Shown: positions 5,817 through 15,672 of the stretch, in pieces | Numbering within the stretch: position 1 is the stretch's first letter | Layout of the letters: every line of letters begins with the position of its first letter | DNA from: a virus | Taxonomy: Duplodnaviria; Heunggongvirae; Uroviricota; Caudoviricetes | Strand: one strand, 5' to 3' | IMG/VR virus record: IMGVR_UViG_2799112923_000002 | Location: 128,001 to 166,911 of that record | DNA length: 38,911 bases | Made by a program: the position numbers and the translations under genes | Notes under the pieces: generated by a model | What the model saw: only the letters and a program-made list of their open reading frames with translations | What the model was told of the DNA's origin: nothing | Databases searched by the model: none

Positions 5817-6719
5817 CTATTTACTATCCGCCGTAGGAATTCCGCCAACTGTCTGATTAATTGCAAAATGCGTTTGTAATCTTTGGTCACCTGCGTTTTC
5901 AAATAATAATTTCATAAATATATTTATTATTTCGTAGGCAACAGCATCTGGAAATTCACATTCAGGCGTAGTATCTCCAACGCCATTTACATCTTCCCAT
6001 GTTAAATTAATAATATCGGGAGTTTTCAAGTAATCTACATAAGCAACATCTGGAGAATAATATTTATTTGTTCCACAAAGAATCTCCATTAATATTCCTT
6101 CGTTACCTGTAAGAATATCTTTATTACAACATGGATCTAATGATTTTATCTCATCATGTTCTATAGGAGATTCGCAATCTCCTTTTGGACAAGGATTTAA
6201 TATACTATCTATTCCGATTTTTGTAGATACTTTCCCAGCTTCCATAGATGTGTTAATATAAAAATATGGATTTTTATAACTGGGCTTTAAATAGGCGTTA
6301 TTTATAATTGCTGGAAATTGATTTGCGGTTAATCTACGACAAAGAGAAAAAACACCCAAATCCTTTTTTAATTCTTTAGGAGGGCAATTCCTACTTATAT
6401 CATCATTACAAACTTTTACGAAATGTGTAGTGCAATTTAATACATGAAAGTAATCCGAAGGAAGAACAACTACATAATTCGCTTCTTCTTTAGGATGTAT
6501 AACTTTATCTTGTTTATAAATACTTAATTCTACACTTCGTTGTAATCAACGTAAATCGTCAGAGGTTTGCTGATTCAAATCAAATCTAGCATATGTTAAA
6601 TTTACATATTGAATGATAGCCTTATTGATTAAATAATTATACTCTTCTATTAATAAAGTAGGAGCCTCGTGTTTATTTTGCTCAACTAAGGCTGAGTCAT
6701 ATAGTTGAAGATGTGTCAT
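5817..6719 (-). CDS. Ring/neck structural protein (300 aa)
   Basis: MTHLQLYDSAL...EEYNYLINKAIIQYV...SDDLRWL (TGA) joins ORF 5817..6359. LPSDYFHVLN and DYLKTP...EFPD..AYEIINI motifs resemble crAss ring proteins. Confidence 0.65.
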
Positions 6720-7673: not shown

Positions 7674-9101
7674 CTAGAATAGAGGATTGCCTGTGTCTTC
7701 ACCAAGGAAGATTACAGAACGATAAGGATTATACATAGCAAGTCCTGCATAACCCCAAGCCACAATATGGCTACCAGCAACACGGCTAGATACTTCGCCA
7801 GAGCTAAGTCCATCACGACCACCAACACCAACGATCCAGTTGTGCATGAATTGTCCACCCTTGAAGGTTAACATTTCCATAGCTGGTTTGTTAGAGATAC
7901 CATCCTCAGTTAAGTCAACCATGACACCATAGTTGCGAGTAGGGAACTCTACATCAAAGGTTCTTTCAACCTTGAAGATAACTTTATTTCCTGCAAACTC
8001 ATAAGCATGATAGGTAGCACCTAATTCAACATAACCATTAGCTGCTTTAGAATAAAGGACAGCACCATCGGTTTTGTGCTCGACAAGCCAACGATCAAGA
8101 ACGGTGTTGACTTCGTTCCACATGCGAGTATTAACAAGGAATAAATAAGAATTACCAGTAGGTTTGATAGATTTTGCAACTAATGTTGCAAGTGCTTTTT
8201 GGAAATAAGCAACAGTTAATTTAGAGAAGACAAACTTGGTAGCAAAACGCTCGAGTTGAGCAATAAGACCATCAGCAGAAACGATAGGACGTCCGGTTTC
8301 AGGTTCATAGATCTTAGGTTTGCCATCTTTGTCAACATTAGATTTACCCCATACAAGAGCCATATCACGAGCTTCAAGATAGTTCTCGATAACTTGCTCT
8401 TCAGCTTTCTTTAAGGTGAACACGGGATCATCTTTACCACCATCTTTACCAGCACCAATCTGAATAAATACATCCTCAAGAGGTTTGTACATTGCAGAAA
8501 GATCGATGTCATTACGGTGTGTAGCAATGAAGGTACGATGTTTCTCAGTGTTGCTCTGATATTTGGTGTAACCCTCTTCATGTAACTCAGGCATATAGTT
8601 GGTTACAAATCTTGTCATCTCACCAGCAAGTGATGCAGGATCAATAGCGGAAGTATAATCTGAATCGTTAATCTTACCAATGACTAAGAACTCGTTATCG
8701 CGAAGTCTCTGAGGACGATTTAAAACGATGATAAGATCACGAGTCTTCTCAATGATAAATGTATCATACTTCTGATAGTAATTCTCAGGGAAATAGAAAA
8801 GAATGTCTGCACCGTTGCATCCATCACCTTCAACGCGAAGGATAGGAACTCTCTTGATACGGTTAACAGCAATGTTCCATTCTACAACAAAAGAATCAAC
8901 ATCTTTAAAACCATTCTTTGGTTTACCTTTTGTATATACATTTTGAAGTGCTTCGGTAAGATGTGTAATAGTGTACTGATCGTACAACGTTGAAACTAGA
9001 CCCATTCTAGCGGGCTTAACACTAAGGAATTTCATGAAATCTTCATAAGTTCTAGTATCAGCCATGTTAGGTCTAACAGTAGTAAAACCTGATATTCTCA
9101 T
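7674..9101 (-). CDS. Major capsid protein (475 aa)
   Basis: Size, highly-expressed codon style, a following terminator, and HK97-like crAss MCP motifs (EARDMALVWGKS, GRPIVSADGLIAQLE, YEFAGNKVIF). Preceded by an acidic scaffold-like gene. Confidence 0.85.
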   Translation of the reverse strand: MRISGFTTVRPNMADTRTYEDFMKFLSVKPARMGLVSTLYDQYTITHLTEALQNVYTKGKPKNGFKDVDSFVVEWNIAVNRIKRVPILRVEGDGCNGADILFYFPENYYQKYDTFIIEKTRDLIIVLNRPQRLRDNEFLVIGKINDSDYTSAIDPASLAGEMTRFVTNYMPELHEEGYTKYQSNTEKHRTFIATHRNDIDLSAMYKPLEDVFIQIGAGKDGGKDDPVFTLKKAEEQVIENYLEARDMALVWGKSNVDKDGKPKIYEPETGRPIVSADGLIAQLERFATKFVFSKLTVAYFQKALATLVAKSIKPTGNSYLFLVNTRMWNEVNTVLDRWLVEHKTDGAVLYSKAANGYVELGATYHAYEFAGNKVIFKVERTFDVEFPTRNYGVMVDLTEDGISNKPAMEMLTFKGGQFMHNWIVGVGGRDGLSSGEVSSRVAGSHIVAWGYAGLAMYNPYRSVIFLGEDTGNPLF

Positions 9102-10332: not shown

Positions 10333-10761
10333 TTAGAATATTGCAAGAAAAATTGCTGCAATCACTCCTAAACCAGTTGTAGTTTGTCAAAATATTACTC
10401 CTCTATTTGCTCTCTTCAATTGTTTTTCCAAATCGGAGACTACCTCCTGATTATTGGAATTTATTCGTTCTATTAATATATCTTTGTTTTCTATGATAAT
10501 TCTTTGAGATTCAACCATATCTTTAAGTTTGTCAGATGTTAAAGTTAAATCTTCAATAAGTCTATCATTGACAACATTTAAAGAATCGGATACTTCTAAT
10601 CTATAAAATGCTGTATTGATTTTATCCAGATCCGATTTATTTATCATAATCATAGTATCTACTACTTCAGATGCTATTTCTACATGCTTTACTTTATCTG
10701 GAAGCTGAGCAAATCCAATTAAAGGTAAAAATATTAAAAGTAAACAAATTAATTTTCTCAT
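10333..10761 (-). CDS. Signal peptide + coiled coil + C-terminal TM protein, spanin-like (142 aa)
   Basis: MRKLICLLLIFLPLIGFAQ signal. Read-through of TGA 10387 adds WQTTTGLGVIAAIFLAIF, then TAA 10333. Confidence 0.5.
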
Positions 10762-11084
10762 CTTTCTAAATTTCTCTTTAATTGTTCAACACCTTCAGAT
10801 GTAGATTTAGATACTACAACTTTATCTTTTTGTGTTATAATTTTACTTTTGATTTTATTTAAAGAGTCAATTTCCTCTTCTAATGTTTCTACTTGTAATT
10901 TATAAACACTTATTTGTTTTTCATATTCTTGATTAACATAAACCAATGAATCCACTTTTACAGTGTTCTCTAATTTTAGTTTATTAAGTTCTTTTACAAC
11001 TTTATTATATCTAAGATTTCCAACAATCAATAGAATTAACAAAAGTCCAGATATAATTAAATATAAAATTTTTTTATCGTTCAT
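10749..11084 (-). CDS. N-terminal TM + coiled-coil protein, i-spanin-like (111 aa)
   Basis: ILYLIISGLLLILLIVG anchor followed by heptads. TGA 10758 then TAA 10749. Overlaps the next gene. Confidence 0.5.
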
Positions 11085-11370
11085 CTTTTATTTCTTTAAG
11101 TGTACGTAATTCTCAAAATTTTTCTTTAAATCCTGCTTCTTTTTTACCTTCTGGAATTTTACCAGCTCGAACTCAATTGTCAAAAGTAGCTCTACTAATA
11201 TTTAAATAAGAACAAGCTTGATACTTACTTAGTTTATTCTTAGTATTAGTAACTCGATTTATAGTATCTAAAACTTCGTTCATTTCATCTTCTGTATAAT
11301 CTGTATTTCCATTATCAATTGCATCTACTACATTAAGTAGAGTTCTTTTTAAAGTTTCTTTTTTCAACAT
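11074..11370 (-). CDS. Excisionase/AlpA-like HTH DNA-binding protein (98 aa)
   Basis: LSKYQACSYLNISRATFDNWVRAGKIPEG...KEKFW. Both W are TGA and fall at family-typical positions. Confidence 0.75.
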
Positions 11371-11728
11371 GAGTCTTATTTTTAATTAAACATCCAACCA
11401 ATATAAACATTCCTATAAGTAATAAATAAATACATATCATTCATTTTCCTGTAACTGGAATCCCGATATAAAAATCGATTATATTTATAATATTAGCAGT
11501 AAAAATAAAATATAGAGGTAATCTATGTCATATACAGTACCCTAAAGAAAAAGAAAATAATAAAATTATTATAATTGCAAATACAGATTGTCCGAACAAT
11601 GTAGCTAAAAATACAGAATAAATACCAATACAAGATAGAATCAATTCTAGTAAATATCCAAACGCTAAACATCATGGAGCAAATTTTAGAGACAGTAGTA
11701 ATAATTTTTTATTAAATTCTTTTGCCAT
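11333..11728 (-). CDS. Multi-pass membrane protein (131 aa, ~4 TM), missed by the ORF track
   Basis: MAKEFNKKLLLLSLKFAPWCLAFG...LGYCIWHRLPLYFIF...GKWMICIYLLLIG. 3 TGA, basic C-terminal tail. Confidence 0.7.
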
Positions 11729-11953: not shown

Positions 11954-11984
11954 CAAATATAATAAAAAAATTTGTAAAAACAAA
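11954..11984 (-). promoter_or_regulatory. Bacteroidota sigmaA-type promoter
   Basis: TTTG (11981-11984), 19-nt spacer, TATATTTG (11954-11961). Context closely resembles the promoter at 10295. Confidence 0.75.
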
Positions 11985-12016
11985 AAAAAGATGGAGAATT
12001 TTTATTCCCCACCTTT
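11982..12016 (-). terminator. Intrinsic terminator closing the six-gene operon
   Basis: Minus strand GGTGGGGAAT-AAAA-ATTCTCCATC hairpin (with G-U pairs) then U8. The peptidase stop codon lies in the loop. Confidence 0.7.
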
Positions 12017-12427
12017 CAATTTTAATCTACAATGAACACATAAAAAATTTTTAGCAATCGGAAACATTGATTGACCTATTTCGCCAGTAAGATATTGATA
12101 TTCTTCTGAAAATGGATCAATTCCGTCATATTCACAAATATGCATTGCCAAATGTCCTTTTTCGTGATCAAAGGTATTTTGAAACTCTGCAGGAGATGAA
12201 GTTAACCCAATAACAATAACAGAACATCTACCTTTCAGATTAGAATATGTTAAACCTGTATTATATTGTTGTTTTACTAAACTCTCCGCAATTTCTTCTA
12301 ATTTCTTTTCTGTGCATCCTATTTCTTCTAATTCACCTAATATATCATCGATATAATAAGTATCAACTGCATAATAAACCGTAACATATCAGTCTCAATC
12401 TTCAAGGTAGAAATTCTGTTTAATCAT
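12002..12427 (-). CDS. HExxH zinc metallopeptidase-like protein (141 aa), missed by the ORF track
   Basis: MIKQNFYLEDWDWYVTVYY...NTGLTYS...NTFDHEKGHLAMHICEYDGIDPFSEEYQYLTG. HEKGH at 12152-12166 plus a downstream Glu. TAATG-coupled. Confidence 0.7.
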
Positions 12428-12837
12428 TATATCATATCCTCTCAAACTATTGGAGTTCCAGATCCAATACAGTCTGCATAAAATCTAGTAAACGGAAGTT
12501 CTGAATAACCATCTTGGTCGTCTACATAGTCTTTGATAAATAATGCCATATGTCGTTCATCTTCAATAGAAGATCCCATATAATCTGCCATACACATATT
12601 TGCCGCAAATACATAGTCATATCCAATCTTATTATCCACTTTTAAACTATATCGTTTTAAGATTTCATCAACTCCGTCCTTAGACATAGGTATAATAAAA
12701 TTCTTTTTTCCATTTACGTCCTTCTTATACATTCTAGAAACTGCTCAATCACACATTTTCTTTGAGAAGTGTCAACCGTAGACACTTAGATATTCCTCCA
12801 TTCCAGAAGGAAACTTATCTCTTGCATCTAGTCTCAT
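12427..12837 (-). CDS. Conserved helical hypothetical protein (136 aa)
   Basis: MRLDARDKFPSGMEEYLSVYGWHFSKKMCDWAVSRM...GTPIVWEDMI. 3 TGA. Extends ORF 12442..12732. Confidence 0.75.
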
Positions 12838-12839
12838 CT

Positions 12840-13028
12840 CTAACGATATCTACCTCTACTATCTCTCATTCTATAAGAACGCATTGATCCGCGTTCTCCT
12901 AACTCTTCCATAGCCGCTTCGTAGCCGTCTTCATAACCGCATTCGTATGCCTCTTCTACGGTTTTTTCTTTACGTCCCATTCTATAATCATGGTCGTAAC
13001 CCTCACGAATTTCCCACATTCTATTCAT
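12840..13028 (-). CDS. Small R/G/Y/E-rich protein (62 aa)
   Basis: Intact ORF. AYECGYEDGYEAAM helix and RDSRGRYR tail. Overlaps the upstream gene. Confidence 0.65.
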   Translation of the reverse strand: MNRMWEIREGYDHDYRMGRKEKTVEEAYECGYEDGYEAAMEELGERGSMRSYRMRDSRGRYR

Positions 13029-13527
13029 GCTTTACTCCTTTAAATTGCTCTATCAGCAAGTTCATAGTCCTTGTCATTTCATCCATCTTTTCACGCATAG
13101 ATGCCATTTCTTGTTGTTGAGCTTGTTTTTCTGCAACTTCTGGATTAAAATCGGATAGGAGTTTATCGTATTGCTCTATAAGAGACTTGTGATAACTAAC
13201 ACTATTTATTACGTCTATACTTTTTTGCTTTGAGCTCACTATTTCAGCGTTCATAGCATCTCTACTATCTGAAATTGTAATACTTTCCCCGTTACTATAC
13301 GAATCAGAAATATCTGCTTGTGCAGGTAAAGAATTATAATTTACATTAGTATCATTAACTTTAACAATTAAATCCACAATCATTTCTTGTGGTTGTCCAA
13401 AATTACTTGGGATTGGATATTTTGGTTTTGGAATAGGTTGATTTACAACATATCCGGTTTCCAATCTCGCATTATCGCCTTTATGAAGGATGTAAATTGG
13501 ACTATTTGGTCTTACTGATTGAAACAT
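13021..13527 (-). CDS. Hypothetical protein, beta domain + C-terminal coiled coil (168 aa)
   Basis: Intact ORF tightly packed in the operon. Confidence 0.75.
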   Translation of the reverse strand: MFQSVRPNSPIYILHKGDNARLETGYVVNQPIPKPKYPIPSNFGQPQEMIVDLIVKVNDTNVNYNSLPAQADISDSYSNGESITISDSRDAMNAEIVSSKQKSIDVINSVSYHKSLIEQYDKLLSDFNPEVAEKQAQQQEMASMREKMDEMTRTMNLLIEQFKGVKHE

Positions 13528-13530
13528 AAA

Positions 13531-13863
13531 TTAAACTAATAATTGTAATACACCGTTTTCTCTATCATAAAATACTAAATGAATTCCTTCTTCTAGTTCT
13601 GCTCCAGTAACAGCTACATTACCAAATGTAGTTACAGCAATTGTTGTTCCAGCTATACTTGGAACATTGAAACTAACTGGTAAAGAAGTGGTTGTAGGAG
13701 TTTGATCAATCTTGATCGCAATTAATCCAGAAAATCTTGGAGAAACTGCTGGAGAAGCATTAAAATTAAATACAACAGATGTTGTATTTTCAGTTATACT
13801 TCTACTTTCAAGACATGGAATTCCATTAATATTCACTCTATTATATACAAAACTCGTAGCCAT
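13531..13863 (-). CDS. Hypothetical all-beta protein (110 aa)
   Basis: Intact ORF with alternating hydrophobic pattern. Confidence 0.7.
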   Translation of the reverse strand: MATSFVYNRVNINGIPCLESRSITENTTSVVFNFNASPAVSPRFSGLIAIKIDQTPTTTSLPVSFNVPSIAGTTIAVTTFGNVAVTGAELEEGIHLVFYDRENGVLQLLV

Positions 13864-13886
13864 AGTATCAAGCCCCTCCTAAGCAA

Positions 13887-14744
13887 TTAAGCCCAGATTG
13901 AACCTGAACCATAGTAAGGATATCCATAATATCCATTTCCATAAAGAGTATAAGCAGGAACAGCGGTAAGTTGAGGATACTGTACAGAAACTGTTGAAGG
14001 TTGTGCAGCTTTAATTTCAGAAACTTCTTTCTGAATTGGAGCAAGCATCGCAGCAACAGCAGCTGTTTGTGCAGCATTGTCAATCTGTCCTTTGAGATTT
14101 GTATTCTGTGCTGTAAGAGAATCAATTTTATTTTGTAATTCACGCTCTTTAAGTGCACAGAACTGATCGTTCATTGCAATTGTTTGAGCATTAATTGCAT
14201 TGATTATATTACCAGCATTTCTATCTGCTTGTGAACCAAGTTGATTGGTTTGTTCGATAGTTTGAATTCTAGATTCATAACCCTGTTGTGTAGTTAAAAG
14301 ACGGTTCTCGCAGCAACATTCCTGAAGTTTAGCAACAATAGATGCATCTCCAGAAAGAATAGCATTCTGAACCTGTAAACCAGTCATTCCAGTTTGAGCA
14401 GCAACATTGGCGATAGCCATACGTGCATCATTAACTGCAGCAGACATTGTATTAAAATCAGAATTGAAAGTTGTGGCTAATTGACGAACATCTGCATCAG
14501 TACCATTGATTGCTTGAAGGATTACATCGGTATTATTATCATTGTTTAACATACCTGCAGCACCATTGCCACCAAAACCTCCAAAGCCACCCCAGCCACC
14601 GCTGAAGCCAGCACCAAGTAAAAATCCAATCAATGCACCACCTCATCCACCAAGGCCCCAACCATTATTTCCATTATTAAGGGCATAAGCTAAAGGAAGA
14701 GAATTACCTTCGTTGCCAAATACATAAGTTTTTTCTTCTGCCAT
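13887..14744 (-). CDS. Gly/aromatic hydrophobic segment + long coiled-coil protein with CCC motif (285 aa)
   Basis: MAEEKTYVFG...GWGLGGWGGALIGFLLGAGFSGGWGGFGG...LQECCCENR...YGYPYYG. One TGA extends ORF 13887..14633 to ATG 14744. Confidence 0.8.
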
Positions 14745-14798
14745 TTTATTTTAATGTTTAAATTTTTATTAATATCTATCATTTGTTGATCAACGATA

Positions 14799-14915
14799 CA
14801 AAGATAGTATATAAACAAGCAGAAGCCTAATGTTGCTAATAAATACTTTTTAATTAGTTAAATTATTGATTTTCAATCATTTATAAAATATAAAAATTAG
14901 TAAGACATTACTAAT
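14799..14915 (-). promoter_or_regulatory. -7 promoter element plus operator-like inverted repeat
   Basis: TATCTTTG at 14799-14806 (TAnnTTTG). ATTAGTAA-GACA-TTACTAAT at 14896-14915. Related half-site TTGCTAAT at 14833-14840. Confidence 0.55.
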
Positions 14916-14920
14916 GATAC

Positions 14921-14952
14921 AAAAAAAGCCCTCTGTTTACACAGAAGGCTTT
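14921..14952 (-). terminator. Intrinsic terminator ending the fibre/adhesin transcript
   Basis: Minus strand AAAGCCTTCTGT-GTAA-ACAGAGGGCTTTTTTT (GNRA loop, U tract). Confidence 0.85.
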
Positions 14953-14999: not shown

Positions 15000-15386
15000 T
15001 TAAACTTCGATTCATCCATAAATACCAGGCTCTCATACATTATTATCAATAGACGATTCCCAATGTTTTTCATTATGTGCAACCTTATCTCCTTTCATAT
15101 AAGCATCAGATGCTCCGATTGGTTGTACCCACTCCGGTCATTCTTCAAGACTTACGACTTTAAATAATGCAGGAGTTTTATCAGGGGTTCAATCCGATTG
15201 AGTTTTATGTGCTTGTATAACTTTATACAAAATACCTAAATATTTATATCTTTGACCTATTGTAACATTTATTCCAATTTTTCAAGATGGAAATAAATTT
15301 ATATTTTCTACTGCTTGTTCATCTGGTTGTAATTCTGCAGCAGATTCTATCCTATGTCTATACGCTAAAGCTTCACTTCTTTTCAT
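15000..15386 (-). CDS. Tandem CBM5/12 (ChiC-type) carbohydrate-binding-like protein (128 aa), missed by the ORF track
   Basis: LFPSW...GQRYKYLGILYKVIQAHKTQSDWTPDKTPALF...WPEWVQPIGASDAYMKGDKVAHNEKHWESSIDNNVWEPGIYGW. 5 TGA and 2 TGG, at the conserved Trp positions. Confidence 0.8.
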
Positions 15387-15387
15387 T

Positions 15388-15672
15388 TTATTCTCCATTA
15401 AGTATTATATCCAGAGCTTGGGTATCAGAGATTTCAGGATCTACATAAGGTTCAGGTTCTGGTCAATCTTCAGGTTTATCTATTTCATCAAAATCTTCTA
15501 GTACGTCTTGATGTGGCGGATCTTGTAGAATACCACCAATATAATAAGAATAGCCAAGTCAAAACTCTTCTCCCATTATTTCATCTGATACTATTCTGCG
15601 AATTACTTTTCCTTCATTCGCAATAAGAACGGTAACATCCGTTATTCCATTATTTCTTATTTCTGTTCTCAT
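15388..15672 (-). CDS. Small acidic fibre-accessory/chaperone-like protein, copy B (94 aa)
   Basis: MRTEIRNNGITDVTVLIANEGKV...LGYSYYIGG...KPEDWPEPEPYVDPEISDTQALDIILNGE. Paralog of 16915..17196. Confidence 0.75.

Follow-up and report, generated by a model that had tools for sequence, protein, structure and literature searches.

The last 38.9 kb of the 166,911-bp genome IMGVR_UViG_2799112923_000002 from the IMG/VR collection (positions 128,001 to 166,911; this whole stretch of 38,911 nucleotides is called the window in the following) carry a compact six-gene cassette at 12002-14952, its genes being termed A to F in order of transcription. Judged from its organization and from its relatives in other genomes, this module is a self-contained, horizontally moving accessory unit. 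No known system fits it as a whole; only the gluzincin motif of protein F and a generic moron layout find a counterpart. We rate the module as new in kind and infer its function, our leading and tentative reading, held with clearly less than even confidence, being that of a separately regulated late module acting on the host envelope or on lysis, accessory to the holin/endolysin/spanin set.

Pfam matches of the window to the crAss muzzle protein (3-2501) and the crAss major capsid protein (7674-9101) assign its source to a divergent, TGA-recoded crAss-like phage, and genome size as well as genetic code are consistent with the large “zeta” crAss-like group (PMC12386605). Translated with table 11, the region 12002-14952 breaks into short frames. 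Reading TGA as tryptophan resolves the whole window into a continuous minus-strand gene array, in which the region yields six contiguous open reading frames (ORFs). Since each TGA within E and F coincides, in the family alignments, with a tryptophan column of homologues from standard-code phages, we consider the recoding to be real. The family alignment also sets the start of F to the ATG at 12427 and not to the TTG at 12445, which would give a protein of 147 aa.

The six genes are tightly coupled. Going from A to F, the junctions consist of 23 nt, 3 nt, an 8-nt overlap, 2 nt, and a 1-nt overlap (TAATG). Predicted intrinsic terminators close the preceding unit and the cassette itself (Table 1). 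Upstream lie tail-fibre genes encoding LRR and CBM5/12 proteins, downstream the capsid-side block with holin-like, helix-turn-helix (HTH), spanin-like, scaffold-like, and crAss capsid genes. An earlier note on this DNA, made from the sequence alone, had described an operon of tightly coupled genes with bounding terminators and a promoter/operator of its own, inserted between tail and head blocks. All of this was recovered in our analysis, the spacings being 23 nt or less including two overlaps and the promoter with its unique palindrome being predicted upstream of A. The protein features that it had listed are present as well, namely the CCC motif and glycine-rich hydrophobic segment of A, the RDSRGRYR tail of D, and the HExxH motif of F, and its description of C as “beta plus coiled coil” is backed by a structure model.

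Table 1. Features of the cassette and its surroundings (window coordinates unless stated otherwise).
Feature	Position	Strand	Remarks
Inverted repeat TTAGTAAnnnnTTACTAA	14897-14914	-	upstream of the promoter; columns conserved in the seven-sequence alignment
Bacteroides-type -7 box TATCTTTG (TAnnTTTG)	14799-14806	-	predicted promoter; kept in relatives
Perfect 10-bp palindrome GTTGATCAAC	14785-14794		4 nt past the -7 box; operator-like, predicted
Gene A	13887-14744	-	285 aa; one TGA codon
Gene B	13531-13863	-	110 aa
Gene C	13021-13527	-	168 aa
Gene D	12840-13028	-	62 aa
Gene E	12427-12837	-	136 aa; all three Trp codons are TGA
Gene F	12002-12427	-	141 aa from the ATG at 12427 (MIKQ...); both Trp codons are TGA
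Intrinsic terminator of the upstream tail-fibre/CBM unit	14925-14952	-	predicted; 12-pair stem and T-run
Intrinsic terminator ending the cassette	11986-12017	-	predicted
TATATTTG box for the next unit	11954-11961		predicted; after the closing terminator
g98, small HTH_17 protein	11074-11370	-	Pfam HTH_17, E 1.8e-5; candidate cassette regulator
Holin-like gene (g131)	within unit 10333-11728, after the cassette		131 aa; 3-4 transmembrane segments
Spanin-like protein	within unit 10333-11728		111 aa; N-terminal transmembrane segment and coiled coil
Spanin-like protein	within unit 10333-11728		142 aa; signal sequence (no lipobox Cys) and C-terminal transmembrane segment; exists only via TGA read-through
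CBM gene	15000-15398		132 aa; directly upstream of the cassette; two CBM5/12 carbohydrate-binding repeats
Protein of unimolecular-spanin layout	6681-7085 of L145 (P. segnis BX2 prophage)		134 aa; lipobox AMSSC and C-terminal transmembrane segment

The evidence for a unit inherited as a whole stems from its occurrence elsewhere. Scans of IMG/VR with A and, independently, with E delivered 136 loci, to which bacterial assemblies searched with an E homologue alone added 27 more. Among the 102 loci that were non-identical, carried E, and had sufficient flanking DNA, A, E, and F were collinear on one strand in 99, with the gene order A-B-C-(D)-E-F preserved. Of the other members, C was found in 94 loci, B in 74, and D, which is short and of low complexity, in 51. 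The span from A to F ranged from 2.3 to 3.8 kb. The loci found in bacterial assemblies via E alone all (27 of 27) hold E and F in module order, 24 of them with A upstream. A tblastn search of deposited phage genomes with A gave 30 records, in which E, F, C, and B, where found, follow downstream in the same order; E by itself has 481 matches in IMG/VR.

The carriers are phages of diverse kinds. Among crAss-like phages, they comprise Steigviridae (cr116_1), Intestiviridae (cr271_1), several Suoliviridae, and large zeta-like contigs; among prophages, 30-60-kb Parabacteroides prophages in isolates of P. segnis, P. hominis, and P. leei. Further cultured carriers are the Bacteroides uniformis phage C3_41T2LP and an element of B. 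thetaiotaomicron BFG-119. ΦcrAss001 lacks the module, as tblastn with the module proteins gave no match in that genome: its endolysin gene gp30 is followed directly by gp31 and the capsid gene, whereas cr116_1 of the same subfamily holds the module at this very place. The earlier note had mentioned similar cassettes in unrelated Bacteroidota phages and prophages and had proposed a mobile multi-component module. The former is borne out by the same collinear cassette in unrelated Bacteroidales phages and prophages, the latter agrees with the co-inheritance in 99 of 102 loci and with the presence/absence pattern of cr116_1 versus ΦcrAss001. The synteny survey across phage families that it had proposed thereby found the genes together elsewhere, the converse of what it had named as counter-evidence.

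Some of these carriers deserve a remark of their own. The BFG-119 element (L174, “plasmid unnamed1”, NZ_CP103284.1) is a 61.9-kb circular record filed as a non-mobilizable plasmid. Besides the six-gene module, it has genes for a holin, a GH108 lysin, an integrase, and an HTH repressor as well as large tail-like genes, and it has the appearance of a temperate phage with a circular genome, present in a cultured strain. The Loutivirinae cr109_1 and cr53_1 (L002, L171) hold A, B, and C only, placed after a holin, a LysB-like gene, and a “sigma factor/ubiquitin-like” gene. Because E and F are missing from these two, A-B-C may be the more ancient core, to which D-E-F was added later. Seven contigs combining the module with crAss-type g98, scaffold, or capsid genes (L160, L164, L166, L168, L169, L170, and L152) are binned in metagenome-assembled genomes (MAGs) labelled Bacilli, Acholeplasmatales, Lachnospiraceae, or Anaerovoracaceae. 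Binning has probably misplaced phage contigs into bacterial MAGs here.

A conserved regulatory region precedes A. When the regions preceding A are aligned for seven relatives with A proteins ~70-91% identical to that of the window, the -7 box plus twelve bases GTTGATCAACAA is invariant while the flanks drift. TAnnTTTG as such is not enriched across the window (54 copies found versus 56.6 expected), but six of the 27 minus-strand copies sit in the few large intergenic gaps. The palindrome GTTGATCAAC, invariant in the seven relatives, occurs once in the 167-kb genome, versus 0.17 expected copies. In other crAss-like lineages, a different perfect palindrome, GTAAGCTTAC, GTAACGTTAC, or TGTAATTACA, takes this place with its spacing to the box unchanged; the symmetry is thus kept through the changes of the palindrome, which fits the site of a dimeric DNA-binding protein. 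A candidate for this protein is g98, encoded directly upstream of A in most other crAss-like lineages and, by synteny, relocated to 11074-11370 here. In the P. segnis prophage, the B. thetaiotaomicron element, and C3_41T2LP, a homologous DnaA-domain-IV-like HTH protein of 97-98 aa is encoded upstream of A, and the B. thetaiotaomicron copy of the module shows a TAnnTTTG box followed by an imperfect inverted repeat. We infer that an HTH protein, either g98 or the DnaA-domain-IV-like one, would bind the operator-like palindrome. The putative recognition helix of g98 differs by palindrome group, an observation confounded with phylogeny and not counted as evidence. As a side note, a second GC-rich stem-loop AATCCCTGTAACTCAATAAGTTACGGGGATTTTT stands between the upstream terminator and the promoter in the relatives L008, L012, L014, L010, and L011 (~5880-5915); its counterpart in the window (14820-14870) has decayed to AT-rich sequence.

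Protein A is a predicted single-pass membrane protein. A conserved N-terminus (MAEEKTYVF) leads into a hydrophobic segment rich in glycine and aromatic residues (residues ~28-62), which is clearly transmembrane-like in many homologues (e.g., WIIFLFFLMGW). It is followed by an N/Q/A-rich helix of ~180 residues, a long coiled coil with an invariant CCC at 143-145, a conserved QPxTVxVQYP segment, and a Tyr/Gly-rich C-terminus. A matches phrog_16490 (E 1.1e-33), and its family comprises 5,512 clusters (90% identity) at E <= 0.001 among the candidates scored; the best 120 homologues listed are without source name or Pfam domain. In public records, homologues of A are labelled “spike protein/glycoprotein” or “outer capsid protein/viral fiber”. 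Profile matches of A to influenza HA2 (E 0.045) and coronavirus S2 HR1 (E 0.12) are not significant, and we read the labels as a reflection of composition and coiled-coil likeness. What A has in common with the class I fusion proteins HA2 and S2 is a hydrophobic, glycine-rich peptide ahead of a heptad-repeat helix, which explains the “spike/glycoprotein” labels; unlike them, A lacks a second transmembrane anchor and belongs to no enveloped virion. The likeness is best read as analogy or as an effect of composition.

B is T/V/S-rich with a conserved C-terminal motif YDRxNGxLQLL, and a profile search of 1.8 billion representatives linked it to 287 related clusters, nearly all of ~60-170 aa and none multi-domain. 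C matches phrog_28898 (E 3e-44); its model (pLDDT, the predicted local distance difference test, 84.4) combines an SH3/KOW-like beta barrel (1-87) with long helices (89-127 and 129-166). The best structural match is domain I of EF-P (Z 6.8, root-mean-square deviation 1.8 over 58 residues), with nothing more specific, and the modelled barrel is a common fold that is uninformative on function. D consists of a MWEIRE start, an acidic helix EEAYECGYEDGYEAAME, and a basic S/Y/R/G-rich tail. E is the best conserved module protein, with a mean column identity of 58% in the alignment; between this phage and the Parabacteroides prophages it is 64% identical, A only ~28%. It belongs to DUF7841 (Pfam PF25223, E 3.3e-28) and to phrog_38431 (E 4.4e-60), and a search for fusions found no fused forms of it. 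Scans of the module proteins against Pfam, PHROGs, NCBIfam, and PADLOC matched only families of unknown function, with no PADLOC defence model below E 0.0025 and none credible, and profile searches of the Protein Data Bank (PDB) with A, B, E, and F gave no significant match. No description of the module was found in the literature on DUF7841, on PolyVal together with Bacteroides phages, or on the crAss “spike” and “outer capsid” labels; its families exist only as unknown-function entries, in keeping with the earlier proposal of an undescribed system.

Protein F is a minimal HExxH protein. Across an alignment of 30 sequences, H94, E95, H98, E114, Y118, G121, and C136 are invariant, and a C-terminal CxxC is mostly conserved. 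The model (pLDDT 92.9) consists of a four-stranded sheet (strands within 7-79), a helix carrying HExxH (85-107), and a helix carrying the Glu (114-134). On this model, F unites the features of a gluzincin, an HExxH helix, a Glu on the next helix, and a beta sheet, and this is its predicted catalytic class. Against solved structures, a Foldseek search of the PDB returned E > 0.4 only, with faint rows of M1 aminopeptidase cores, and the best VIA Z was 5.2. In BFVD, a protein annotated “PolyVal metallopeptidase” matches (E 1.7e-12, TMq 0.83), this being a computational label on a homologue and the sole support for that family; weaker matches are SprT-like entries and, from phages of Ralstonia, Serratia, and Erwinia, small proteins that are uncharacterised. 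F shares with the PolyVal/ArdC-C/SprT-like zincins the HExxH motif and the Glu on the next helix, small size, and phage origin besides the nearest BFVD labels, but it is never fused in a polyvalent protein, the fusion search returning three likely gene-call artefacts only, and it is always paired with DUF7841.

Several family assignments for F were rejected. Membership in the MPTase-PolyVal/ArdC-C/SprT-like family was set aside for lack of a significant match to a family profile or a solved member: no Pfam family, and hence no zincin model, matched at E <= 0.1, and the ArdC row of the PDB profile search (E 1.9) is not significant. An ImmA/IrrE (M78) protease was rejected since there is no Pfam match and the neighbour is always DUF7841 and not an HTH protein. 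F is also no phage endolysin, as it shows no similarity to the L,D-carboxypeptidase of ΦcrAss001 (gp30) and separate endolysins are encoded beside the module elsewhere.

The module proteins were further compared with the virion parts of ΦcrAss001. For B, C, E, and F, hhalign against gp21-gp46 gave probabilities <= 1.6%; proteins beyond this range were covered by the tblastn search of the phage collection only. BLASTP did not align F to gp30 or B to gp29 and yielded for A and gp27 a non-significant match of 22 residues (E 0.24). With neither a BLASTP alignment nor profile similarity, B as the head fibre gp29 was discarded. No module protein maps to a characterised virion part of ΦcrAss001, in agreement with the initial impression that none of the six is a crAss core gene. 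The other finding that the earlier note had named as counter-evidence, an assignment of every gene to known virion components, thus did not arise either.

What links the module to lysis is its neighbourhood, of which the lysis cassette is the most regular element. In 21 contexts with A proteins less than 60% identical, we scanned 80 same-strand ORFs within 3.8 kb upstream of A. At least 11 of these contexts hold an endolysin (homologues in L145, L021, L025, and L163), a homologue of a unimolecular spanin, or u-spanin (L145, L075, L161, and L163), homologues of ΦcrAss001 gp27/gp28 (L079), or a holin-like gene with three transmembrane segments (L166, L170, L071, and L153). Being derived from homology to a few reference proteins and from simple hydropathy rules, this count is a minimum. 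Endolysin/amidase families make up 14 of the 25 PHROG rows listed and represent the sole function recurring across many of them. The gene order of the P. segnis prophage is illustrative: a tail protein, a holin-like protein, an endolysin, and a protein with lipobox and C-terminal transmembrane segment are followed by the HTH gene, A to F, and opposite-strand early genes. This 134-aa u-spanin-type protein (Table 1) has homologues in three other Bacteroidales phage contexts (L075, L161, and L163). Elsewhere, an endolysin follows the module (cr273_1), a holin and a LysB-like gene precede it (cr109_1 and cr53_1), or the DUF7841 protein is succeeded by a holin (Phage_holin_4_1) and an endolysin (PD691P6). 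In the window itself, no endolysin was found; the unit after the cassette (10333-11728) resembles a lysis set without a recognisable endolysin.

Codon usage adds information on timing. Positions 30001-60000 of the genome form a plus-strand block with 10 TGA versus 105 TGG codons, which resembles an early region written in the standard code within a recoded phage. In the rest of the genome, 36-79% of the tryptophan codons are TGA, and 46-79% on the late strand. With six of ten, the cassette resembles the late strand, and three of its six genes need read-through. A role of recoded stops in confining translation to late and lytic genes has been proposed (bioRxiv 10.1101/2021.08.26.457843; PMC9523058). 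Together with the late-type TGA usage, this makes an early function of the module in this phage unlikely.

In the reading that we tentatively favour, a dimeric HTH protein would gate the promoter so that the module is made late. A would insert into the inner membrane via its glycine-rich segment and present the long coiled coil and the cysteine cluster, an architecture that may be likened to membrane-fusion or spanin-type proteins, with B, C, and D as soluble partners. The predicted zincin F, coupled in translation with E, would process either a part of the module or a host protein of envelope or regulatory function and thereby time or modulate lysis or egress, be it by timing, inhibition, or completion. 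The lysis linkage, the codon evidence against early expression, and the lineage-specific palindrome point to a late, envelope-related role without proving one. The functions that the earlier note had suggested, a membrane or fibre structure matured by a protease or a modifier of host envelope or dormancy, are likewise conjecture. A bolder version appears doubtful to us: a Bacteroidales-specific machinery in which a gated “very late” operon has A form a coiled-coil assembly together with B, C, and D, anchored in the membrane and controlled or matured by the zincin and DUF7841, as a new step of lysis, egress, or lysis delay.

A number of observations weigh against an envelope or lysis role. Complete lysis sets occur both beside the module and in its absence; in the P. 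segnis prophage, holin-like protein, endolysin, and the lipobox/C-terminal-transmembrane u-spanin stand complete beside it. The module is therefore not core lysis machinery. Five of its six proteins have neither a signal peptide nor a transmembrane segment and look cytoplasmic, and a cytoplasmic zincin is not known to serve as a lysis component. Neither flank of the hydrophobic segment of A is basic. In C3_41T2LP, the module sits after recombination genes, and in the BFG-119 element it lies ~6 kb past the holin and GH108 genes, adjoining the integrase. The adjacency to lysis genes could merely reflect a shared place at the ends of late operons.

Among lysis proteins, spanins are a close known parallel to the predicted architecture of A. 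They act by coiled-coil-driven membrane fusion, and A shares with them (lambda Rz/Rz1; T1 gp11) a predicted N-terminal membrane segment, a long coiled coil, conserved cysteines, and lysis-gene neighbours. Unlike spanins, the module lacks a lipoprotein partner, B having neither signal peptide nor lipobox, and A has no C-terminal transmembrane segment and no N-terminal lipobox; indeed, none of A to F carries a signal peptide or lipobox at its N-terminus. The module moreover contains four further genes including a zincin, and genuine u-spanin-type genes adjoin it in the same phages. A as a holin was rejected, since separate holin-like genes exist (g131 in the window, PD691P6, and NZ_CP103284) and no holin model of PHROGs or Pfam matched.

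The main alternative, rather unlikely in our estimation, is that the six late proteins are packaged cargo, loaded into the particle and ejected with the DNA to act in the next infection. The Dar proteins of phage P1 are a multi-gene, late, capsid-packaged anti-restriction set, and the module compares with them, by description only, in combining several small late genes in one accessory unit. As cargo, the module would parallel polyvalent proteins or this Dar set in split-gene form, with A as a membrane-penetrating pilot protein and F plus E as an injected zincin unit directed against host defences. The labels of the closest fold relatives of F, PolyVal metallopeptidase or SprT-like, together with the weak ArdC row argue in this direction, polyvalent proteins being predicted to be delivered with DNA (PMC5512222), but F lacks fused polyvalent forms. 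Late codon usage and the location inside the structural block of crAss-like genomes would suit cargo, whereas temperate phages carry the module after the lysis cassette or beside the integrase, outside their morphogenesis genes, and a dedicated operator is unusual for structural genes. A and B are N/Q/T/S-rich, a composition typical of virion proteins, and both A and C show a strongly conserved N-terminus, which would befit a packaging signal. ΦcrAss001 sets a precedent with a cargo protein bearing a predicted transmembrane helix (PMC10172136); however, the module proteins lack similarity to its virion and cargo proteins gp21-gp46 and have no tblastn match in its genome. The supplementary tables of one crAss metaproteome contain no module peptides, carriage of the module by those phages not being established.

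We regard as unlikely that the module is a moron-type accessory operon directed at competitors or the host, through superinfection exclusion, anti-phage or anti-defence activity, or conversion. As far as the sequence tells, its layout is that of a moron, with a predicted promoter and terminator of its own and presence or absence in collinear relatives. In common with lambdoid morons, it is a terminator-bounded independent unit between conserved blocks, present in some and absent from other close relatives; it differs from them in its six coupled genes kept together across families, the dedicated palindromic operator, and the late-type codons. Its location is in line with a moron, at the distal end of late operons, beside the integrase/immunity region (BFG-119 element), and bordering early genes of the opposite strand (Parabacteroides prophages), and so are the patchy distribution within Crassvirales and the regulator-like gene of its own, including the DnaA-domain-IV-like HTH homologues upstream in three non-crAss lineages. 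On the other hand, no PADLOC defence model matched, the strict conservation of six genes over thousands of variants is unusual for exclusion genes, and the need of three genes for TGA read-through in a virulent phage disfavours early or prophage-state expression. An add-on virion surface structure, with A and B as fibre or decoration and C to F as assembly and maturation factors, is improbable: the public “outer capsid protein/viral fiber” and “spike protein” labels, the coiled coil of A, the size and composition of B, and the head-fibre gene gp29 among lysis genes at the equivalent place of ΦcrAss001 (PMC10172136) speak for it, but the labels rest on coiled-coil likeness with non-significant HA2/S2 profile matches, similarity to gp21 or gp29 is lacking, the hydrophobic segment of A is clearly transmembrane-like in many homologues, and temperate phages carry the module outside the morphogenesis genes.

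The module ranks among the most widespread unannotated gene sets of Bacteroidales phages. These, crAss-like phages among them, dominate the human gut virome, and their lysis of and persistence in hosts are poorly understood. Whether lysis control, injected cargo, or exclusion, any of the readings would, if true, give a function to six “hypothetical” families and correct the misleading “spike protein” and “outer capsid protein” labels. If a new step of lysis, egress, or lysis delay is involved, it could bear on the persistent, low-lysis lifestyle of crAss-like phages. As the module is present in a cultured phage, a cultured element, and prophages, its role is directly testable.

Directly upstream of the cassette, the 132-aa protein with its CBM5/12 repeats (Table 1) is probably part of the receptor-binding fibre tips, given that its gene follows those of two LRR_5 (BspA-type) proteins.

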